A stretch of 40,218 bases of DNA from Escherichia phage CLB_P1 (KC109329.1); one strand, 5' to 3'. Positions 2,478 through 39,476 are shown, numbered from the stretch's first letter. Notes: generated by a model not told the origin, from the sequence alone. A program made the numbers and translations.

Positions 2478-5159
2478 ATGAGCGTCATCTCTATTGACAA
2501 ACACGACTTCTCTGATGTGTCGAACGCCATTGAGCCGTTTAACCTGCTGGCTGACCACTACGGGCAAGACCTTGCAGTCAAACAGCTTCAGCTTGAGCAT
2601 GAGGCATACACTGAAGGCGAGCGACGTTTCATCAAGAACCTTGAGCGCCAGACTGAGCGCGGAGAACTGGCAGACAATCAGGTCGCCAAGCCTTTGATGC
2701 AGACTCTGGTCCCTAAGATTGCGCAAGCCGTCAAGGAGTGGCATGAAGGTCAAGACGGGAAGCTGTCAACCTCTCGTCCGAGCGTAGCGTTCACCATGTT
2801 GAGCACTGAAGAGAAGGCCGTCAAGGACCGCTCTCTGCGCATCTCCTGTGAGTCTGCTGCGGTTATCATACTGAAGGTCATCCTCTCCAAGCTGGTCAAG
2901 CCTGAAGGGATACCGATTACACCTATGGCCTCAGCGATAGGTCGCACACTTGAGGATGAAATCCGATTCGGTCGCATTCGTGACAAGGAGAAGGAGCACT
3001 TCAAGAAGGTGATAGCTGATAACCTGAACAAGAGAGCCGGGGCATCATACAAGAAAGCCTACATGCAAGCGGTCGAGACATCCATGCTGGAGCAGGGTCA
3101 ACTGGAAGATGCGTGGGGAACTTGGAGTCCGACAGAAGCGGTACACGTTGGCATCAAGATGCTTGAGATTGTCATACAGTCCACACAACTGGTCGAGCTT
3201 AAGCGTTACGGTGCTGGCAATGCAGCTGCTGACGTTGAGATGGTCCACCTGTCAGACTTCTGGGTCAAGAAGATGACACAACGTGGGTTCAGCCTTGCGG
3301 GTATTGCGCCAGTCTACCAGCCTTGCGTCGTTCCACCTAAACCGTGGACTGGTGTCGTAGGAGGTGGGTACTGGGCCAAAGGTCGCAGACCACTACCACT
3401 GATTCGCTTAGGGTCTAAGTCTGCGGTGGCGCGTTACGAAGACGTGTACATGCCTGAAGTCTATGACGCTGTGAATATCATCCAGAATACACCTTGGAAA
3501 GTTAACAAGAAGGTACTGGAAGTGGTGAACACGGTCGAGAAGCTGAACAACACGCCTATTGACGACATCCCTCAGATGGAGCCACTGAAGCCTGAAGACT
3601 ATGCGGGTGAGACTGAAGAGGAACTCAAGGCATGGAAGAAGGCTGCTGCTGGTATCTACCGCCGAGAGAAGGCCCGGCAGTCACGCAGATTGTCACTGAG
3701 CTTTATCGTTAACCAAGCGAACAAGTTTTCTCAGTTCAAGGCCATCTGGTTCCCGTACAACATGGACTGGCGCGGTCGCGTCTACGCTGTGCCGATGTTC
3801 AACCCTCAGGGTAACGACATGCAAAAGGGTCTACTGACTCTGGCAGTCGGCAAGCCTATTGGTGCCGATGGATTTAAATGGCTGAAGGTACACGGTGCAA
3901 ACTGTGCGGGTGTCGATAAAGTCACCTTCGAGGAGCGCATCAAGTGGGTGGAAGACAACCACGACAACATCATGGCTGCTGCTAAGGCACCGATGGACAG
4001 CATTGAGTGGTGGGGCAAGTTAGACTCTCCGTTCTGCTTCCTTGCGTTCTGCTTCGAGTATGCTGGCGTAATGCACCACGGATTGTCTTACTCCTGCTCG
4101 CTTCCGATAGCGTTCGATGGGTCCTGCTCTGGGATTCAGCACTTCAGCGCGATGCTTCGTGACCACATCGGTGGACATGCAGTAAACCTGACGCCTTCCG
4201 GTAAGGTCCAAGACATCTACCGCATCGTGTCTGACCGCGTTGAGGAGGAGCTTAAAGTCCTGCTGGTTAACGGCACGGACAACGAGATGGTAACTCACGA
4301 GGACAAGAAAACTGGTGAGATTACCGAACGTCTCAAGCTGGGGACACGAGAGCTGGCCCGGCAGTGGCTGACTTACGGTATGTCACGCAAGGTTACTAAG
4401 CGCTCAGTCATGACTCTGGCCTACGGGTCGAAAGAGTACGGCTTCGCAGACCAAGTTTATGAGGACATCGTGATGCCAGCGATTGACTCAGGGTCTGGCG
4501 CTATGTTCACCGAGCCAAGCCAAGCGTCTCGCTTCATGGCTAAGATGATTTGGGAAGCTGTGAGTGTGACCGTAGTTGCTGCGGTTGACGCGATGAAGTG
4601 GCTTCAAGGTGCTGCCAAGCTGCTGGCTGCTGAAGTGAAGGACAAGAAGACTGGTGAAATCCTGAAGCCTTGCCTTCCGGTACACTGGGTCACGCCTGAT
4701 GGTTTCCCGGTATGGCAGGAATACCGCAAGAAGGATACCACTCGTCTGAACCTGATGTTCTTAGGGTCCTTCAACCTTCAACCTACGGTCAACAAAGGTA
4801 CGAAGAAAGAGCTGGATAAGCACAAGCAGGAGTCAGGCATTAGCCCAAACTTCGTCCACTCACAAGATGGTAGCCACCTACGCAAGACTGTAGTCCACAC
4901 GCATCGCAAGTATGGCGTGATGTCATTCGCAGTGATTCACGATAGCTTCGGGACCATCCCGGCTGACGCTGAATATCTGTTCCGTGGTGTCCGTGAGACG
5001 ATGGTTGAGACATACCGCGACAACGATGTGCTGCTTGACTTCTACGAGCAGTTTGAATGCCAGCTTCATGAGAGCCAGCGCGACAAGTTGCCTGAGCTAC
5101 CGAAGAAAGGTAAACTGAATATCGAAGACATCTTGTCTTCAGATTTTGCATTCGCTTAA
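2478..5159 (+). CDS. Single-subunit DNA-directed RNA polymerase (T7 gene 1 homolog), 893 aa
   Basis: Full-length alignment with T7 RNAP from recall (DFS...PFN.LADHYG, PCVVPPKPWTG, WFPYNMDWRGRVYAV, HGANCAGVDKV, SPFCFLAFCFEYAGV, IHDSFGT, FAFA C-terminus). Confidence 0.97.
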   Translation: MSVISIDKHDFSDVSNAIEPFNLLADHYGQDLAVKQLQLEHEAYTEGERRFIKNLERQTERGELADNQVAKPLMQTLVPKIAQAVKEWHEGQDGKLSTSRPSVAFTMLSTEEKAVKDRSLRISCESAAVIILKVILSKLVKPEGIPITPMASAIGRTLEDEIRFGRIRDKEKEHFKKVIADNLNKRAGASYKKAYMQAVETSMLEQGQLEDAWGTWSPTEAVHVGIKMLEIVIQSTQLVELKRYGAGNAAADVEMVHLSDFWVKKMTQRGFSLAGIAPVYQPCVVPPKPWTGVVGGGYWAKGRRPLPLIRLGSKSAVARYEDVYMPEVYDAVNIIQNTPWKVNKKVLEVVNTVEKLNNTPIDDIPQMEPLKPEDYAGETEEELKAWKKAAAGIYRREKARQSRRLSLSFIVNQANKFSQFKAIWFPYNMDWRGRVYAVPMFNPQGNDMQKGLLTLAVGKPIGADGFKWLKVHGANCAGVDKVTFEERIKWVEDNHDNIMAAAKAPMDSIEWWGKLDSPFCFLAFCFEYAGVMHHGLSYSCSLPIAFDGSCSGIQHFSAMLRDHIGGHAVNLTPSGKVQDIYRIVSDRVEEELKVLLVNGTDNEMVTHEDKKTGEITERLKLGTRELARQWLTYGMSRKVTKRSVMTLAYGSKEYGFADQVYEDIVMPAIDSGSGAMFTEPSQASRFMAKMIWEAVSVTVVAAVDAMKWLQGAAKLLAAEVKDKKTGEILKPCLPVHWVTPDGFPVWQEYRKKDTTRLNLMFLGSFNLQPTVNKGTKKELDKHKQESGISPNFVHSQDGSHLRKTVVHTHRKYGVMSFAVIHDSFGTIPADAEYLFRGVRETMVETYRDNDVLLDFYEQFECQLHESQRDKLPELPKKGKLNIEDILSSDFAFA

Positions 5160-5461: not shown

Positions 5462-5484
5462 CCTAAACTATCACTATAGGATTA
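5462..5484 (+). promoter_or_regulatory. Phage RNAP promoter (CCTAAACTATCACTATA/GGATTA)
   Basis: Consensus 17-mer read directly; position corresponds to T7 phi1.1. Confidence 0.65.
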
Positions 5485-5526
5485 GACTCAAGGTCATGAC
5501 TCAAAGTCGTGGCCTTCATGATTAAC
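5483..5526 (+). promoter_or_regulatory. Conserved stem-loop, candidate RNase III processing site (R1.1-like)
   Basis: AAGGTCAT...GTGGCCTT stem that pairs only as RNA (two G-U wobbles); same element recurs at 12568 and 36254 with different loops. Confidence 0.4.
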
Positions 5527-5557
5527 CCTAAATAAACACTACTGGAGATTTAACCGT

Positions 5558-12401: not shown

Positions 12402-12566
12402 GTGTTAAAGAAACTTAAAGCTCGATACCATCGGTTCATGTACAAATGGTGGAGCGAAGAAGCAACCTGCCTGTCGAACATTCTGGGAGACCAAAGGTTC
12501 GACTCTAAGGCATGGAAGAAAGCTAACCGGAAGTTTATGTATCACTTCTTGCGTACAGACTTCTAG
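12402..12566 (+). CDS. Small hypothetical protein (GTG start, 54 aa)
   Basis: GGAGGA with 8-nt spacing before GTG at 12402; an in-frame ATG at 12438 is an alternative start. Confidence 0.3.
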   Translation: MLKKLKARYHRFMYKWWSEEATCLSNILGDQRFDSKAWKKANRKFMYHFLRTDF

Positions 12567-12567
12567 G

Positions 12568-12614
12568 TCTAGACTCAAGGTCATTCACATTGAGTGGCCT
12601 TTATGATTAGACTA
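12568..12614 (+). promoter_or_regulatory. Conserved stem-loop, candidate RNase III processing site (R4.7-like)
   Basis: AGACTCAAGGTCAT-loop-GTGGCCTTTATGATTA; same stem as at 5483 and 36254 with a different loop. Confidence 0.4.
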
Positions 12615-32400: not shown

Positions 32401-33293
32401 TCGATGACCGATGGCTGAAGACCGCTGGTATCTCTGACGAGCAGTGGAATGGAATTAAGTCCCTAATCCGTGAGTCAGTGACTCGTGGTCCAGACGGGAA
32501 GTATACCATCAAGGATAAGAAGGCGTTCAGTCAGGACCCAAGGGCTATGGACCTGTGGCGTATGGGCGACACCATCGCTGACGAAACGTTACTCCGTCCT
32601 CATAAGCTGAGCAACATGGACGCCAAGGCTTATGGTCCTCTGGCTAAGACTGTCCTTCAGTTTAAGAACTTCGTCATCAAGTCCATCAATGGGCGTACCA
32701 TGCGAACCTTCTATAACGCCACGAAGAACAACCGAGCGATGGATGCTGCTCTGTCCACTGTGATGTCTATGGGTCTTGCTGGTATCTACTACATGGCTCA
32801 GGCACACATCAAGGCTTACGCTATGCAGGATGGTCGTGACCGTGAGTACCTGAAGCAGGCCCTGAACCCTACGATGATTGGCTATGCCGCTCTGTCCCGT
32901 AGCTCCCACTTGGGTGGACCACTTGGGGTCGCTAACATTCTTGGTGGTATCGCTGGGTATGAGGACACTAAGATGCTCCGTTCATCTATCCTGCCCCGTT
33001 CGCCTACAGAGAAGCCTGAACGTGCCATCGCGTATGGTGCAGCTACAAGTGACCCTGTGATGAATGTTGTTGGTAACTTCTTGGAGCAGGTTCCAGCTTT
33101 CGGATATGCTGCTAACGTTGGCGCTTCGGCTTACAACTTGGCTGGCTACCTCAAGGCTGATACTCGTGTCAACGAGCGTGACTACATGACCGGGATGTAT
33201 AATACGTTCCGTGAACTGGTTCCGAACGACCCAATTACCCAGAAGCTGTTGCTTGGAACGTTTGAGGAGCAAGGTATCCACATCAAGGACTAA
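29406..33293 (+). CDS. Internal virion protein D (T7 gene 16 homolog) with a non-canonical N-terminal ~195-aa domain
   Basis: From about residue 200 aligns with T7 gp16 (STWFGFG..EAE, PTRWN.H.W..EEL, GVDPL.YVP, RLEARETARN, SPTGMQSGASGK, YGISH..QF, GLVG.ENNSFLEARNLFDSD, GNVRAL, RSPFTK.LNGTTNYLLDA); the N-terminus lacks the lytic-transglycosylase motif recalled for T7. Confidence 0.9.
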   Translation: MATRGIRNNNPGNIRVSKDQWEGMTGDDGAFVTFDSPESGVRALGKNLLSYGRQGYDSIEKIINRWAPPNENDTKAYIDSVVAATGIPATQSLDLSDPDTLSSLAQAISFHETGSRYDPEVYQKGVARALNGISPKTPPVSANVFDALTEGLKSKPKVSLGENLPTAAGLNIEGQAPEAPNESFGEMFYKATGETMQEREERSTWFGFGSATEAEVKNSMVGVAIRAGQTEDSLDVIGDVFNPTRWNNHKWSREELDQIRNAGVLPQYYGVITGGSPQNLTELINLALENQKLDAEKSKAGTGAQLAAGVIGAGVDPLTYVPIAGQVGKGGKLVNKMFTVAAQSGALAGASELARTSVAGGDAYVAEAIMGGALFGGGMTAIGDAIGKALGKSTNEFAGPATRLEARETARNVDGQDLSRLPIQEGEQTFSHQGVKFADVPNEPGSVRLEDGSILIGENPLNPKTRQVFDEVIEPERAAAGVNLGGLTEIGLKLLRSENPEIRGVAADLVRSPTGMQSGASGKIGTTASDVFERLRAVDHRFYNDIDDAVTEALKDPYFQTAFWRDSGAFRQDIYQRVSMAIEDGSGNLKSELTPGELKVYDLLKNQFDAKREMMENPAMFGRPDAQSIFPGSRFKGTYVPHVYSKQMKELYIKELGSPEALQEAIKKSWLTSYASRPEVKKRVDEALLEADPTLTPEGLAAAVDKYANDKAYGISHTEQFERSSVMEENINGLVGLENNSFLEARNLFDSDMSIVLPNGQTFSVNNLREWDMDKIVPAYNRRVNGDIAIMAGTGKTTKEMKDLVETMMNKAGDDGKLKGEVSTLRDTLKILTGRARRDGADDAAFATVMRTMTDLSFFAKNAYMGVQNLTEIGGMLARGNVRALLHGVPIFRDLAFRNKKVGASEIKDLHNVIFGKELDDSIRPSKQDVIDRLRAYSALSKPTATALGSAKYYTGELAVRSPFTKVLNGTTNYLLDAGRQGFLSDIVEHSLTGSKRKFDDRWLKTAGISDEQWNGIKSLIRESVTRGPDGKYTIKDKKAFSQDPRAMDLWRMGDTIADETLLRPHKLSNMDAKAYGPLAKTVLQFKNFVIKSINGRTMRTFYNATKNNRAMDAALSTVMSMGLAGIYYMAQAHIKAYAMQDGRDREYLKQALNPTMIGYAALSRSSHLGGPLGVANILGGIAGYEDTKMLRSSILPRSPTEKPERAIAYGAATSDPVMNVVGNFLEQVPAFGYAANVGASAYNLAGYLKADTRVNERDYMTGMYNTFRELVPNDPITQKLLLGTFEEQGIHIKD

Positions 33294-33311
33294 ACTATCA
33301 CTATAGGAAAC
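33289..33311 (+). promoter_or_regulatory. Phage RNAP promoter (ACTAAACTATCACTATA/GGAAAC)
   Basis: Consensus core; phi17 position upstream of the tail fiber gene. Confidence 0.65.
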
Positions 33312-33357: not shown

Positions 33358-34335
33358 ATGTCCACGATTACACAATTCCCTTCAGGAAACACTCAGTACA
33401 GGATTGAGTTCGACTACCTAGCCAGAACGTTTGTTGTTGTTACGCTGGTGAATAGCTCTAACCCTACCCTTAACCGTGTACTGGAAGTTGGTCGAGATTA
33501 CCGATTCCTTAATCCAACGATGATTGAGATGTTGGTTGACCAATCAGGTTTCGACATCGTTCGTATTCACCGTCAGACTGGAACTGACTTAGTGGTAGAC
33601 TTCAGGAATGGCTCAGTGTTGACAGCTAGCGACCTGACCAATGCAGAGCTTCAGGCTATCCATATTGCAGAAGAAGGTCGAGACCAAACGGTTGACTTAG
33701 CGAAGGAATATGCCGATGCTGCTGGTGACTCTGCTGGCAACGCTAAGGATAGCGAGGACGAAGCACGACGAATCGCTGAGAGTATCAAGGCAGCTGGTCG
33801 AATTGGCTATATTACCCGTCGCTCCTTCGAGAAAGGCTTCAACGTTACAACATGGAACGAGGTCCTGTTATGGGAAGAGGATGGTGAGTATTACCGCTGG
33901 GATGGTACGCTTCCAAAGAACGTTCCTGCTGGTTCAACTCCTAACACCGCTGGGGGCATTGGTTTAGGTGCGTGGGTTGGCGTTGGTGATGCATCATTGC
34001 GCAGCAATTTATCAGAAAATGATGGCGCCTTGATAGTAGGTGGAGCTATTCTTGAATGCCAAACGGTAGCACAGGCGCAAGAGATATCTGGTTTAACGGA
34101 AGGTCGAAAGGTAAGAACATACTATTATAATGTCCCAGTTGTAACAGATTGGGTGTTCACCCCCACCGCGCCGTCCGGTGGGGTTTTCTACATTCCCGCT
34201 GTCGGTGGTTACTTGATATTAATGACGCCTAACTTCGCTTCCGCTGGCATTATTGAAGGTGAATATGTTCCGCTAAACGCCGCACATAACCGTAATGTAA
34301 TTCAAAAAACTGGTAAGAGACACAAGATTCAGTAA
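33358..34335 (+). CDS. Tail fiber protein, conserved N-terminal tail-attachment domain with divergent, shorter C-terminal part (325 aa)
   Basis: N-terminal ~150 aa align with T7 gp17 (F.YLAR.FVVVTL, DYRF, LVDF..GS.L.A.DL, H.AEE.RD); remainder unlike T7 and lower GC from about 34000. Confidence 0.85.
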
Positions 34336-34337
34336 AT

Positions 34338-35636
34338 TTGAATATGGAGCAACAGGTTACTTTTTATGTTCTCGGCTCTATTCATCCATTACGAGATAAT
34401 ATAGAAATACACCACGAAGCTGGGGTTACAGTTATGGGGCGTTACGATGACCCCACGGTAGGTCCAGAAATTATGGGGTTAAACTCCGGCGGTATGTGGT
34501 CCTTTGCACACTTTCTCAACCCTGATGCAACGGTTTGGGATGACAATAACTACACAATTACAGCTGTTATGAAAAATGTTACCTACGTTCTTAACGGAAA
34601 GATAGGTACAGAATATAACTCCATTCATTCTAAACCGCACAACAACAACCCTATTGGTTTCTTTACTTGTGAAAACTGTAGCGTTGTCGGCTCTGGCGGG
34701 GTTATTGGGTCTGACCACCGAGGCATTAACGTAGATGGTGCAGGGGATAATTGCCGTATAGATATCGGGTACGCTACAGGAACCAGCAACAACCCGATTC
34801 AAATGAAAATAAACGCTGAACGCTACGCTTTTGTTAAAGTTGGTGCGGTCTATGGGGTTAAGTTTGATGGCGGTCAAACAAAGGCTGTGGTGTGGTGCGG
34901 CGGTGGGCGTGTTGATGTAGAAGTCGGTAACTACAGGTGGGATGGGGTGAATAAACCAATCCTCGCTTACGGCAACGGTTGCCAGGAAATAACTTTAAAG
35001 GCTGGCATAATATCCGGCGTTTCGCAATTAATACGTCAGTACAATACCCCTGTAGCTAGAGTTCTGTCAGCATGGGTTAATAATACAGACTCTCTCATAA
35101 ACAAAGCAGAAGATTCTGACAAGGAAGGTGTGACCAAGATTTCTGAGATTCGAGGTGTGAACGCCGTCGACACGGTACTAACTAGCGCATTCTATGATGA
35201 AACGAAATTAGCGAATCAAGATGTTGTTACTATAACCGGAAACGATTTCAGAAACGCTGGACCATCATTCCTTTACTTTAAAGGTAAAACAGCTGGTGGT
35301 GCTATTAGGTTGTGGAACGTTAATAACAACCTCGACCCTGTAGGTCTTGCGGACCTTTCAGACTGGAATATTTTGCTGGGGCAAAGTGTCGTTACTACAG
35401 TTTCAGCAACTTCTTTCACGTACACTATGTCCCGTAGATATGAAAATATCACAATTGCCGTAACGGAATCCGCCACCCTACGGTATGTTACGGTTAGCTT
35501 ACGAGCGCACCTGTCGTCGTCAACTACGGCGTCATACATAGTCGGCGGCACGTCTATGACTGTCTCGAGGTCCGGCGATATTTTTACTTTTACGGTTAAC
35601 TCCGGAACTATAAATTTTTACGTATTACATAACTAA
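34338..35636 (+). CDS. Putative separate tailspike / receptor-binding protein (432 aa) in a low-GC module
   Basis: Long ORF directly after the short tail fiber gene; Gly/Asn/Val/Thr-rich; visibly AT-richer than the genome; own terminator. Start may be the ATG at 34344. Confidence 0.55.
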   Translation: MNMEQQVTFYVLGSIHPLRDNIEIHHEAGVTVMGRYDDPTVGPEIMGLNSGGMWSFAHFLNPDATVWDDNNYTITAVMKNVTYVLNGKIGTEYNSIHSKPHNNNPIGFFTCENCSVVGSGGVIGSDHRGINVDGAGDNCRIDIGYATGTSNNPIQMKINAERYAFVKVGAVYGVKFDGGQTKAVVWCGGGRVDVEVGNYRWDGVNKPILAYGNGCQEITLKAGIISGVSQLIRQYNTPVARVLSAWVNNTDSLINKAEDSDKEGVTKISEIRGVNAVDTVLTSAFYDETKLANQDVVTITGNDFRNAGPSFLYFKGKTAGGAIRLWNVNNNLDPVGLADLSDWNILLGQSVVTTVSATSFTYTMSRRYENITIAVTESATLRYVTVSLRAHLSSSTTASYIVGGTSMTVSRSGDIFTFTVNSGTINFYVLHN

Positions 35637-35643
35637 AAAACAA

Positions 35644-35674
35644 AACCCCGCTTCGGTGGGGTTAGTTTATCATC
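35644..35674 (+). terminator. Intrinsic terminator closing the tail fiber/tailspike module
   Basis: ACCCCGC-TTCG-GTGGGGT stem-loop (UUCG tetraloop) followed by a U-rich tract. Confidence 0.6.
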
Positions 35675-36241: not shown

Positions 36242-36253
36242 ATCTCTTAAGTG

Positions 36254-36298
36254 TTAGACTCAAGGTCATTACTGTATGTAGTGGCCTTTATGGTTAAC
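36254..36298 (+). promoter_or_regulatory. Conserved stem-loop, candidate RNase III processing site (R18.5-like)
   Basis: AGACTCAAGGTCAT-loop-GTGGCCTTTATGGTTA; third copy of the motif. Confidence 0.4.
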
Positions 36299-36351
36299 AC
36301 TAACTAGTGGAGGAGACTCTACGTGAAATCTGATAAACCGGGAGGGCACCT

Positions 36352-36804
36352 ATGCTCGAATTTCTAAAGAGAGCGGCTCCGTGGTTACTCGCAGCAGTGA
36401 TGTTTGCTGGGGGCTACCACACCGCTAACAATAAGTGGGAGGCTAAGGTCAATGCAGAATACACCTCGAATCTTAAGGCATCGGAGGATACAAGGCTTGC
36501 TGTCCAAGCTGAAGTCAACAAAGTGTCCAAACGGTTTCAGGACGAAATGTCCTCGCTGGAAGGCAGCACTGATAGGATTATTGCTGACCTTCAGTCTGAC
36601 AATAAGCGGTTGCGCATCCGAGTCAAACCTACGAGTGGAACCACGCAAAGTGACGGTCGATGCGTCATTGATGGTTACGCCGAACTTGACGAACGAGATG
36701 CTAAACGTCTTATCGCCATCGGACTGAAAGGGGACTCTTGGATTAAAGCACTACAGGATACTATTCGAAAACTTCAACAAGACAAGGAGAAAGACAATGG
36801 GTAA
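36352..36804 (+). CDS. Rz-like i-spanin (T7 gene 18.5 homolog)
   Basis: MLEFL, EGSTDRII.DL.SDNKRLR.RVK, DGRAELD.RDAKR, GD.WI.ALQDTIR.LQ as in T7 gp18.5. Confidence 0.88.
   Translation: MLEFLKRAAPWLLAAVMFAGGYHTANNKWEAKVNAEYTSNLKASEDTRLAVQAEVNKVSKRFQDEMSSLEGSTDRIIADLQSDNKRLRIRVKPTSGTTQSDGRCVIDGYAELDERDAKRLIAIGLKGDSWIKALQDTIRKLQQDKEKDNG
36452..36727 (+). CDS. Rz1-like o-spanin lipoprotein embedded in the +1 frame of the Rz-like gene (gene 18.7 homolog)
   Basis: PRWK.ALIGL.L....TISGCASES (lipobox ISGC) and SLMV.PNLT.EMLNV as in T7 gp18.7; start ATG at 36452 inferred. Confidence 0.65.
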   Translation: MQNTPRILRHRRIQGLLSKLKSTKCPNGFRTKCPRWKAALIGLLLTFSLTISGCASESNLRVEPRKVTVDASLMVTPNLTNEMLNVLSPSD

Positions 36805-37588
36805 TATTATTACTTTGAAAACTGACGTAGTTTGGCATTTTGCTACTGGTACACCCTCTGGACTGAAGAACGCATCCGGTCACTTGTTATCTGGTACAAT
36901 ATACGTGAAAGTCCCAGCTAACGCCGAGTCTACAAGGATTACACTAAGCGACGGTACGTCTGCTACTGGTAATTTCTCCGATGGTGGCGGCTGGCCTCTA
37001 CAATCAGGCAGTGTACGTCTGGAAGTGGTTGGTAACACAGAAGACGACTTCCTTATTCTTAAAGTCACCAAGCTGAATGACAGTGGCGTCGGACTTGTTA
37101 AGGTAGAGTATACTTATCGGGAGTCACGTCCTGTATCCCACGCTGAGTATTCTCTGGATACCTTCAACTGGTCAGGAACCCAAGTGTGTGCGGCTGGTCA
37201 GTTCACTAACCTAATGACTCTACCTTTAGTGAAGGGAGTGGATAGCGGCGTCGTTACTATCTCCGAAGGAAAGATGCTGTTCCCAGCTAAAGAGGGACTC
37301 AGTAGTGTAAACTTCGTCGTTCGGTTCGCTGGTGAGTTCCCTACAGCCTCAGCTCATAAGTGGCGATTGCAGCTTCGTAGACCAGATAACACTACCCTAT
37401 CTTCCGTGACGGACACAGATGACCAGCAGTCATTCACCATTCGTGAGGCAGCCATCCATAGCTACATAGCTAATACAGACGACCCGTTCGTTACTACTGG
37501 CATCATGCTTGGCATTGAAGTTACCGGGTCTGAGGACCTTACTCTGTCCTCCCTGACTGTTCGCGTTGACTGCATCTTTAACTCTTAA
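36797..37588 (+). CDS. Hypothetical protein of unknown function (263 aa) between the spanin genes and terminase large subunit
   Basis: ATG overlaps the spanin stop (ATGGGTAA); long uninterrupted ORF with genome-typical composition; no recognised motif and no T7 counterpart at this position. Confidence 0.6.
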
Positions 37589-37599
37589 GAGGTGAAGCA

Positions 37600-39363
37600 T
37601 TGAGTAAAGACTTAGTGGCGCGTCAGGCGCTAATGACTGCACGTATGAAGGCAGACTTCGTGTTCTTCCTGTTCGTCCTGTGGAAAGCTCTGTCACTCCC
37701 AGTCCCGACTCGCTGTCAGATTGACATGGCGAAGAAACTATCGGCTGGGGACAACAGGCGCTTCATCCTACAGGCGTTCCGTGGTATAGGGAAGTCCTTC
37801 ATTACGTGTGCCTTCGTTGTCTGGAAGCTATGGAACAACCCAGACTTGAAGTTCATGATTGTGTCTGCCTCAAAGGAACGAGCCGATGCTAACTCCATCT
37901 TCATCAAGCGTATCATCGACCTCATGCCTCAGCTTCGGGAACTCAAACCTAAGCAGGGACAGCGAGATGCGGTTATCAGCTTCGACGTTGGACCAGCCAA
38001 GCCAGACCACTCACCTTCGGTTAAGTCAGTTGGTATCACAGGTCAGTTGACTGGTAGTCGTGCTGACATCTTGATTGCCGATGACGTAGAGGTTCCGAAC
38101 AACTCAGCGACTCAGGCTGCACGAGACCGTCTGTCAGAGCTTGTGAAAGAGTTCGACGCTATCCTGAAGCCGGGAGGTACAATCATCTATCTGGGTACTC
38201 CTCAGAACGAGATGACCTTGTATCGTGAGCTGGAAGGCCGTGGGTACACCACTACTATCTGGCCTGCTCGTTATCCACGCGACAGGAAGGACTGGCAGTC
38301 TTACGGCGACCGTCTGGCACCGATGCTTCAGGCAGAGCTTGAAGAGGACCCTGAGGCCTTCTACTGGCGTCCGACCGATGAAGTTCGCTTCGACGATACT
38401 GACCTGAAGGAACGTGAGCTGTCCTATGGTAAAGCTGGCTTCGCTCTACAGTTCATGCTTAACCCGAACCTGAGTGATGCCGAGAAGTACCCTCTGAAGC
38501 TCCGTGACCTTATCGTAGCAGACTTGGACCCAGCATCCAGCCCAATGGTCTACCAATGGTTGCCTAACCCTCAGAACAAGCGTGAGGACGTTCCTAACGT
38601 TGGACTCATGGGCGACTCATACCACACGTACCAGACTGTAGGTTCTGCCTTCAGTTCGTACACCCAGAAGATTCTGGTCATTGACCCTAGCGGTCGTGGT
38701 AAGGATGAAACTGGTTATGCGGTACTGTATCAGCTCAACGGCTACATCTTCGCTATGGAAGTCGGAGGTATGCGTGGTGGTTATGAAGACTCTACTCTGG
38801 AAGCGCTAGCTAAGATTGGTCGTAAGTGGAAGGTCAACGAATACGTCATTGAGGGTAACTTCGGTGATGGTATGTACCTTGAGCTATTCAAGCCTGTAGC
38901 GGCCCGTATCCATCCTGCGGCTGTAACTGAAGTGAAGAGTAAGGGTCAGAAAGAACTCCGCATCTGTGACGTTCTGGAGCCTATCATGGGGTCTCACAGA
39001 CTTATCGTCAACGCTGCTGCTATCGTCCAAGACTATCAGACAGCCGCTGATAAGGATGGTGTTCGTAACCCTATCTACTCTCTCTTCTACCAGATGACAC
39101 GTATCTCTCGTGAACGCGGAGCCTTGGCACACGATGACCGACTTGATGCGCTGGCTATCGGTGTACAGTTCTTCGTTGAGTCTATGGCTAAGGATGCCAA
39201 CAAAGGCGAACGTGAAGTCACTGAGGAGTGGCTGGAGGAACAGATGGAGAACCCACGGAAAGGCTTCGAGTCCATCCACACTGAGTTCTGGGACAATGGG
39301 GTCCGGGTAACTCACAATACGGACGACGAGCTGGGACTAGGGGCTTACGTTACGTTCCACTAG
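37600..39363 (+). CDS. Terminase large subunit (T7 gene 19 homolog), probable TTG start
   Basis: Walker A-like [16 protein letters not shown], nuclease-domain region; 587 aa like T7 gp19; GAGGTGA RBS 5 nt before TTG at 37600, no RBS before the first in-frame ATG. Confidence 0.93.
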
Positions 39364-39453
39364 CTGAATAACTATAGGCGAAAACTGAATTAATAAGCAG
39401 TTAGTAACCTATAGTTACTACCAGTCTAACCTACTGTTTTACAAGGAGTTTGG

Positions 39454-39476
39454 ACTTAACTATCACTATAGGGAAG
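39454..39476 (+). promoter_or_regulatory. Phage RNAP promoter near the right end (ACTTAACTATCACTATA/GGGAAG), phiOR equivalent
   Basis: Consensus core read directly; located between terminase and the right-end small gene as in T7. Confidence 0.65.

Follow-up and report, generated by a model that had tools for sequence, protein, structure and literature searches.

A rare cassette between the spanin and terminase genes of Escherichia phage CLB_P1 encodes a predicted TNF/C1q-like knob, possibly displayed on the virion

The locus between the spanins and the large terminase

The window analysed here is the whole stretch of 40,218 nucleotides from Escherichia phage CLB_P1 (Kayfunavirus, Studiervirinae), and Megablast aligned it with OZ035730.1 at 100% identity. 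An additional gene, hereafter X, lies between the spanin genes and the gene of the large terminase (Table 1), and its product is identical to AGD81082.1, a "putative protease" of this phage. The original prediction had singled it out as a reading frame of 263 codons whose ATG overlaps the i-spanin stop, and both the ORF list and the sequence agree: the start codon (36797-36799) lies within ATGGGTAA, which also contains the i-spanin stop TAA (36802-36804), and a strong AAGGAG is located 8 nt 5' of the ATG. At the other end, the stop codon TAA (37586-37588) is followed by the 11 nt GAGGTGAAGCA and the terminase TTG at 37600. These 11 nt had been thought to separate X from the terminase ribosome-binding site; they precede the terminase start codon instead, and the ribosome-binding site lies inside them. 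The o-spanin gene is embedded in the i-spanin gene, where an ORF at 36404..36727 includes a lipobox-like LTISGC and SH3 gp44.7 is found at the equivalent offset. The composition of X is like that of the genome, as had been claimed (GC 0.481 vs. 0.501 in the window), and its product is rich in Thr (11%), Ser (10.3%), Val (9.5%) and Gly (9.1%).

Table 1. Positions of gene X, its parts and neighbouring features in the window
Feature	Position	Strand	Basis
Nearest upstream phage-RNA-polymerase promoter, before gene 17	33285..33309	+	repeat family D1
Repeated element between genes 18 and 18.5	36242..36306	+	repeat families D9, D16; copies 5470-5534, 12564-12584
i-spanin gene 18.5, stop overlapping X start	36352..36804	+	Rz-like spanin annotation in P762, Bas105, EPr2, SH3
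o-spanin 18.7, embedded, +1 frame, start uncertain	36452..36727	+	homology to SH3 annotation
Shine-Dalgarno AAGGAG of X, left half of split ancestral terminase RBS	36783..36788	+	sequence; junctions SH3, EcoDS1, Bas105
Gene X, 263 aa, AGD81082.1	36797..37588 (incl. stop codon)	+	ORF list, sequence
N-terminal beta domain, aa 1-115, putative virion anchor	36797..37141	+	shared with paralog Y; all two-domain relatives
CCCAGCTAA, 9-bp microhomology, copy 1, left end of Bas105 deletion	36913..36921	+	
Predicted C-terminal TNF/C1q-like jelly-roll "knob", aa ~117-263, PHROG 17779	37142..37585	+	
CCCAGCTAA, copy 2, right end of Bas105 deletion	37282..37290	+	
Spacer GAGGTGAAGCA, 11 nt, terminase Shine-Dalgarno (GAGGTG), right half of split RBS	37589..37599	+	sequence, junction comparison
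Large terminase gene 19, TTG start	37600..39363	+	99% aa identity to P762 and EPr2 terminases

Late transcription and purifying selection

The phage promoter consensus CTAAACTATCACTATAGGGA was recovered by repeat search as a family of 10 copies. Beyond the copy before gene 17, the next one lies 3' of the terminase gene (39450-39474), and the repeat search with this consensus found no phage promoter between 33285 and 39450. No X-specific terminator was found either. Having neither promoter nor terminator of its own, X is expressed from the late transcript that also covers 17.5, 18, 18.5/18.7 and 19, so that its proposed embedding in the late operon is borne out, also by the overlap with the spanin stop and by the AAGGAG. 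A promoter just 5' of gene 18.5 was considered and rejected: the guessed motif TTAACACTAACTAGTGGAGGAGA is present only once, and the true consensus does not occur near X. For the repeat that separates genes 18 and 18.5, an RNase III processing site is likely, by analogy with R18.5.

Any suspicion that the reading frame is not a gene is countered by its comparison with P762, where the product shares 87% amino acid identity at a dN of 0.079 and a dS of 0.853; the resulting dN/dS of 0.09 is equal in both halves. At 90% identity, X clusters with sequences from phage contigs of ~39-40 kb (20 members, nearly all of 263 aa). X is a real gene of the late operon under purifying selection. Its synonymous divergence from P762 (0.85) far exceeds that of its flanks (0.02-0.22), and in EPr2 X is 49% identical to the CLB_P1 version, the terminase 99%. 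The alleles of X are far older than the flanking sequence, a mosaic pattern that is typical of host-interaction cargo.

An insertion hot spot within the terminase ribosome-binding site

The spanin stop of Citrobacter phage SH3 overlaps the terminase TTG (AAGGAGGTGAAGCATTGA), and the spanin gene ends in ...GATAAGGAGGTGAAGCATTGA there and in most relatives. Against this arrangement, the insert of CLB_P1 is located exactly within the terminase ribosome-binding site, with the left part, AAGGAG, now preceding X and the right part, TAAGAGGTGAAGCATTG, preceding the terminase. The position had been predicted to be empty elsewhere, and this holds for most close relatives, as 56 of the 60 records that match best lack the insert. 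At >=80% identity it is covered by only 3 of ~230 records, and ~98% of the related Kayfunavirus records are without X. A homolog of known function, which would have spoken against the original prediction, was not found at this locus in the relatives.

The comparison of presence and absence that had been suggested thus reveals a hot spot, where several states other than X of CLB_P1 occur: the site may be empty, hold a small ORF (53 aa in EcoDS1), carry an internally deleted X together with an ORF of 56 aa (Bas105), or contain X followed by a second, paralogous gene, Y (Tarrare and two metagenomic contigs). The deletion in Bas105 lies between two CCCAGCTAA copies and is in-frame (369 bp, 123 codons, residues 42-164). 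It leaves a remnant of 140 aa, Bas105_0004, in which aa 1-41 are fused to aa 165-263, and it takes most of the N-terminal domain and the first third of the knob from an isolate that is viable and forms plaques. Moreover, X is frameshifted by a 1-nt deletion close to its 5' end in one metagenomic genome. X is dispensable for viability, given the ~98% of relatives that do without it and the Bas105 deletion, and constitutes a rare, exchangeable cassette that is naturally lost. The hot spot, located precisely within a ribosome-binding site, could be a site for cargo genes in T7-like phages.

A predicted TNF-like knob at the C-terminus

The C-terminal half of X is the part of the protein with database relatives and a confident model. 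Residues ~120-260 reached a pLDDT of 81-96 in two AlphaFold runs with different alignments, and DSSP assigned an all-beta structure to both models, in line with what had been proposed from the sequence. X has no match in Pfam and no sequence match in the PDB, in either case even at E<=10. Among the PHROGs, the sole family is the unannotated 17779 (E 2.3e-22, 80 bits), with residues 117-262 of X on positions 56-206 of the 208-position profile; positions 1-45 of the profile, an N4-like anchor, are unmatched by X. The fold search on a predicted structure that had been recommended returned the tail-needle knobs of Sf6 and HS1, PRD1 P5 and BclA as best structural matches. Foldseek hits in the PDB comprised the Sf6/HS1 knobs (E 2e-6), ExsFA, BxpB, TNF ligands and two trimeric lectins of the TNF-like type, PLTL and BC2L-C; viral proteins annotated as C1q or knob were matched as well. 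The models place residues 117-263 in the TNF/C1q-like jelly rolls, with the ten-strand jelly-roll beta sandwich of ~130-150 residues that defines the TNF/C1q superfamily. PHROG 17779, previously unannotated, would thereby gain a structural identity as a TNF-like fibre knob.

This fold bears directly on the enzymatic names that GenBank and UniProt give to the family: "putative protease" in CLB_P1, "protease" in Salmonella phage S5, "putative hydrolase" in Tarrare and a "COG0366 Glycosidases" note in SP-076. We consider a protease, hydrolase or glycosidase most improbable, as these names are all that speaks for one. The confidently modelled fold is a non-catalytic jelly roll, invariant positions hold W, G, P, F and Arg/Asp and do not follow the pattern of a Ser/His/Asp or Cys/His triad, and a Peptidase_S74 chaperone domain is absent. 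The lack of any Pfam or PDB sequence match agrees with this, and likewise with the original prediction that no catalytic motif can be recognised. For this family, neither "protease" nor "hydrolase" is supported as a name.

An exhaustive HMMER search for the knob yielded 271 representatives, the best 150 of which were used to determine domain architecture; a word-indexed homolog search produced 10 matches swamped by collagen words and its single-sequence run 4. In all but a few of these best 150 of 271, as in every aligned phage homolog, the knob is located at the C-terminus, and in X it ends at residue 262/263. The family spans at least five phage groups, including Schitoviridae, Chaseviridae, Uetakevirus and other Autographiviridae. 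What precedes the knob is highly variable: in Chaseviridae it is a "KISEMP..." fibre-type N-terminus followed by collagen GXY repeats, in other relatives T4-long-tail-fibre-like repeats or "Phage tail fiber repeats", and in still others an SGNH-esterase "head decoration" module or a short lineage-specific N-terminus. No relatives were obtained from IMG/VR scans with Kayfunavirus and Tarrare-type alignments, and the PDB yielded no informative match when its sequences were searched with the family profile, the Klebsiella-type anchor, the Chaseviridae protein or P0140. The view of X as a lineage-specific protein holds only in part: the knob occurs in many phage groups, the complete two-domain architecture is found again at the corresponding locus of Tarrare, a Teseptimavirus, and X is no stable feature of its lineage. 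By analogy, X probably forms a trimer, since homologs are carried on collagen stalks and the top structural matches among phage, TNF and C1q proteins are trimeric.

The closest structural counterpart, the Sf6/HS1 tail-needle knob (PF16532; PDB 3rwn, 4k6b), is likewise a C-terminal, distal, trimeric TNF-like jelly roll on a podovirus surface protein. The two share the fold but no sequence homology: X has no Pfam match, and hhalign of its family against Sf6 gp9 gave 0.1%, whereas Sf6 gp9 itself, as a control, scored 394 bits on PF16532. Furthermore, the Sf6 knob sits on a long coiled-coil needle plugged in the tail channel, while X has a beta domain of 115 aa and no stalk. An N-terminal tail-plug peptide with a long coiled coil is absent from X, residues 1-115 of which are all-beta in both models. 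To our knowledge, T7-like tails have no needle. The models thus speak for kinship of X and the Sf6 knob at the level of the fold and not for membership in one family. The PRD1 vertex protein P5 (PDB 1yq5, 1yq8) and adenovirus-type fibre knobs show no sequence similarity to X either; P5 is borne on a collagen-like shaft at the five-fold vertices of a membrane-containing, tailless phage. The layout of BclA, collagen repeats and then a knob, is matched by the Chaseviridae relatives of X, and the N-terminal domain of BC2L-C and the Photorhabdus lectin PLTL illustrate that sugar binding at trimer interfaces is possible in this fold. However, BclA, ExsFA/BxpB, BC2L-C and PLTL are bacterial and not phage proteins, and sugar binding by X is putative.

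The N-terminal domain and the paralog Y

Residues 1-115 were modelled with a pLDDT of 27-64 over the two AlphaFold runs (55-64 with the deeper alignment), and this domain has no match in Pfam, PHROG or PDB sequence. It is present in all two-domain relatives, the remoter of which are 270-282 aa long and encoded at the spanin/terminase locus wherever the context is readable. It also forms the N-terminus of Y, the paralog found in Tarrare, L011 and L012 (hhalign probability 83-89%; E-values from 2e-6 to 1e-5). In Y, a central region separates the N-domain from a knob homologous to that of X (hhalign 95%, E 2.5e-8). This region includes a helical-looking stretch of 57-60 residues free of Pro and Gly with weak PDB matches to coiled coils, and analysis of its heptad periodicity gave peaks at 4.5, 2.1 and 2.2 residues. 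A coiled coil in Y is a possibility suggested by the Pro/Gly-free stretch and the weak PDB matches.

We regard the N-domain as a new beta domain and as a family-specific, putative virion anchor. The domain is unrelated to anchors of known location, has low pLDDT and lacks structural and sequence relatives, which makes any binding partner conjectural. Between CLB_P1 and EPr2 it is 48% identical and the knob 50%, and this equally fast divergence argues against an anchor on a particle conserved at 99%, for which slower divergence would be expected. An origin of the N-domain as a degenerate copy of the knob was rejected, as hhalign of the two gave a probability of <1% in four set-ups. Weak secondary HMM matches and the look-alike motifs VKVPAN and LFPAKE had hinted at such an internal duplication.

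Where the knob may be displayed

Three lineages, Ithacavirus, Klebsiella phage S16c and Studiervirinae with X and Y, combine one common anchor with different displayed modules. In Shigella phage B2 (Ithacavirus, Schitoviridae), gp46 consists of an anchor and a knob of the same family as that of X (~32% identity), an architecture of a small anchor plus a displayed module, and shares its first 45 residues with gp45 (49%, E 1e-14). This gp45, the C-terminal part of which matches PF11133 (phi29 head fibres), was shown by cryo-EM and mass spectrometry to be a homotrimeric capsid decoration protein (PDB 9d82_J; PMC11654681) that sits on the capsid hexamers. Like X, the genes of gp45 and gp46 directly follow the spanin genes. 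In contrast, the N-domain of X, with its 115 residues, bears no relation to the 45-residue anchor of B2, and B2 has an N4-like capsid of T=9. No homology of X to a known capsid-binding anchor was found; the gp45 anchor occurs only in N4-like homologs. In S16c, four adjacent paralogs with a common N-terminus of ~85 aa follow the terminase and are themselves followed by an M15 endolysin gene; two consist of the anchor only (88 aa each), the third has an additional Ig_2 domain (28.9 bits; cutoff 27) and the remaining one the knob. Where phages bear Ig-like domains, these typically serve as accessory decorations of the surface, e.g. in Hoc, pb10 and N4 gp17.

Comparable extras are well known from other phages. 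T4 Hoc, T5 pb10, N4 gp17 and the PhiM1 alpha-paw are, like X, non-essential and variably present products of extra late genes, and the Hoc-type proteins combine an anchor with an exposed binding domain, with sets of paralogs that share the anchor (PhiM1 alpha-claw and alpha-paw). They display Ig-like or helical modules, however, whereas X would display a TNF-like knob and its capsid binding is putative. The decoration proteins of HRP29 and PhiM1 are helical and unrelated to X.

A position on the tail instead of the capsid would make X a second receptor-binding protein attached to the gp17 adapter or the base of the tail fibres, comparable to the second tailspikes of K1-5, SP6 and KP32-type phages, which extends or modulates host range. 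CLB_P1 would be suited to this, as its gp17 is split into an adapter (33358-34335) and a tailspike (34344-35636; PMC10408124), and the adapter, which matches tail-fibre PHROGs (E 2e-76), is able to carry other proteins. The knob gene of Chaseviridae follows the tail-fibre genes, many long knob relatives contain tail-fibre repeats, and tail needles and tail fibres are among the closest folds. Yet X is also present in P762, EPr2 and the L014 genome, where gp17 is an ordinary single chain, so the adapter is not required. X itself is without a match to PF03906 (the T7 tail-fibre N-terminal domain) or another docking peptide, and published analyses count one receptor-binding protein in these phages. 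Both lineages in which the partner with the shared anchor offers a clue, i.e. gp45 of B2 and the Ig-bearing paralog of S16c, point to the capsid. We thus judge attachment to the tail to be unlikely, though worth keeping in mind.

The genomic neighbourhood brings up another role. Knob genes adjoin lysis genes in five of six lineages, with endolysin, holin or spanin genes as neighbours in Ithacavirus, Chaseviridae and Klebsiella phages, and X itself is translationally coupled to a spanin gene. X might then be a soluble, unpackaged late protein, i.e. a trimeric lectin freed at lysis that either coats receptors or debris, as an anti-adsorption decoy or in superinfection exclusion, or aids lysis. 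Free TNF-like lectins do exist, and the knob paralog gp46 is absent from the table of B2 virion proteins determined by mass spectrometry, which contains gp45 (PMC11654681). On the other hand, the sequence of X shows neither a signal peptide nor a membrane segment, so that it would have no route to the envelope before lysis; gp45 of B2, a proven capsid protein that shares its N-terminus with the knob paralog, is encoded in the same lysis-adjacent block. Relatives have collagen stalks, tail-fibre repeats and fibre-type N-termini, and late structural operons commonly end in lysis cassettes. A freely released lectin therefore seems a rather poor candidate to us.

On balance, X probably encodes a trimeric adhesin or decoration protein that is optional and displayed on the virion. 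The original prediction, which named an accessory or decoration protein of the virion and a late host-interaction factor as candidates, is upheld in so far as the knob family takes the distal position in nearly all of the fibre- or decoration-like proteins compared, while association with the virion is a matter of inference, as are the attachment site and the ligand. We found no virion proteomics or cryo-EM for CLB_P1, P762, EPr2, Bas105 or Tarrare in the literature, and the published description of EPr2 does not discuss the genes of the X locus. The gene-17 promoter would give rise to a late RNA that carries X along with the holin, small terminase, spanin and large terminase genes, and X would be translated through coupling to the i-spanin stop. 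The protein would be made in the cytoplasm, given the apparent lack of a signal peptide. Its C-terminal 147 residues would form the trimeric knob, as at the tips of needles and fibres, and the N-terminal 115 residues would serve as the family-specific anchor that fixes the trimer on the particle. Attachment would most likely be to the capsid surface, possibly to the tail periphery; the capsid is favoured by the example of B2, by the S16c paralog with its Ig domain and by the polymorphic presence of X among near-identical particles. The exposed knob may bind a surface glycan or a cell-wall component, as suggested by structural relatives, namely the TNF-like lectins, which bind sugars, and the short tail fibre of cyanophage A-1(L), in which a structurally similar distal domain binds host cells together with its stem (PMC10966104). 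Such binding would add weak or reversible adhesion on top of that of the O104-specific tailspike. Being dispensable for plaque formation, X would be a cassette that moves between phages into the terminase ribosome-binding site.

Implications for T7-like phages

Accessory fibre and decoration proteins and TNF-like knobs are already known; what is new is the anchor domain and the unusually precise insertion site. A bolder and rather speculative view holds that X, together with the stalked Y, represents a class of lectin knobs, displayed on the head or tail of T7-like phages, that has so far gone unrecognised, with a new anchor, a cassette at the spanin/terminase locus and a further glycan specificity that does not depend on the tailspike. 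If the reading as a lectin knob is true, mucus, capsule or a secondary LPS epitope, for example, could be targets, with effects on the persistence or adsorption of CLB_P1 in the gut. T7-like coliphages are usually treated as phages with a single receptor-binding protein, and host-range prediction, tailspike swaps and therapeutic cocktails rest on that view. Should X be a second, optional adhesin exchanged as a cassette, then adsorption, gut persistence or immunogenicity of CLB_P1, a phage used in mouse-gut and therapy studies, would depend in part on a factor that has been overlooked.

Genome organization around the late genes

In the CLB_P1 genome, the promoter consensus for the phage RNA polymerase occurs at 11 sites, and these define the transcription units (see table). 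A repeated element occurs three times, always in intergenic positions, and the copy between genes 18 and 18.5, a putative processing site, agrees in position with the R18.5 RNase III processing site of T7. The tail fibre gene 17 is present in two pieces, a split already recorded earlier (PMC10408124), with an adapter followed by a separate tailspike ORF that has no obvious Shine-Dalgarno sequence before its start and no match in PHROG. Immediately 3' of the tailspike gene lies a GC-rich hairpin that has T-runs on each strand. It is the counterpart of "motif three", a conserved terminator-like element described downstream of RBP genes (PMC10408124).

Features in CLB_P1 (window) and in loci of other phages (L-handles)
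Feature	Location	Details
Gene 17 adapter	window 33358-34335	325 aa; T7-type N-terminus; stop TAA 34333-34335
Gene 17 tailspike ORF	window 34344-35636	430 aa; start 8 nt past adapter end
Hairpin	window 35644-35663	AACCCCGCTTCGGTGGGGTT
Promoter copies	window 2387, 5458, 7504, 8456, 10580, 17490, 20311, 21320, 26002, 33285, 39450	CTAAACTATCACTATAGG(G/A)A
Repeated element	window 36242-36306, 5470-5534, 12564-12584	21-65 nt; TTAGACTCAAGGTCAT...GTGGCCTTxATGxTTAAC
Small ORF, EcoDS1	L017 1209-1370	53 aa
Small ORF, Bas105	L002 1437-1607	56 aa
X homolog, Providencia phage EPr2	L003 5001-5786	
X allele, metagenomic Kayfunavirus (SRR10902856)	L014 5877-6030	TTTGAAAAC -> TTTGAAAC
Gene Y, Tarrare (Tarrare_45)	L013 5856-6968	
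Gene Y, metagenomic contig	L011 5601-6716	
Gene Y, metagenomic contig	L012 1048-2205	
Tandem paralogs, Klebsiella phage S16c	L020 3628-5450	88 aa; 88 aa; 178 aa with Ig domain; 238 aa with knob
gp45 and neighbouring gp46, Shigella phage B2	L018 1956-2968	

Relatives and alleles of the accessory gene

The spanin/terminase junction, where CLB_P1 carries its 263-aa accessory gene (X), has received other insertions in the Kayfunaviruses EcoDS1 and Bas105, namely two small, unrelated ORFs. Both terminate in ...KEVKH*, the ancestral spanin C-terminus, which places each insertion just upstream of AAGGAGGTGAAGCATTGA. The X homolog of EPr2 aligns to X from an ATG at 5001, 2 nt past the spanin stop codon, which gives a protein of 261 aa, not 207; for EPr2_0060, GenBank sets the start (locus 5163) too far downstream. 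In the metagenomic Kayfunavirus genome, a 1-base deletion in an A-run shifts the frame over the first 36 codons of X. A sequencing error or else a second natural knockout would account for it.

In some T7-like phages X is followed by gene Y, which encodes 370-385 aa and carries no annotation anywhere. Its product begins with an N-terminal domain as in X (residues 1-115) and ends in a divergent version of the TNF/C1q-like knob; the central region between them contains a helical-looking stretch of 57-60 residues without Pro or Gly. Y resembles a form of X with a stalk.

Shared N-terminal anchors recur elsewhere. The four S16c paralogs, flanked by terminase and endolysin, have one N-terminal domain of ~85 aa in common; this anchor is spanned by PHROG 2725, whose label "acetyl-CoA acetyltransferase" looks like a mis-annotation. 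In B2, the capsid decoration protein gp45, whose structure has been solved, and the uncharacterised knob protein gp46 have their first 45 residues in common. The consulted passages of the B2 structure paper contain no discussion of competition for capsid sites; judging from the common N-terminus, gp46 could compete for those of gp45.
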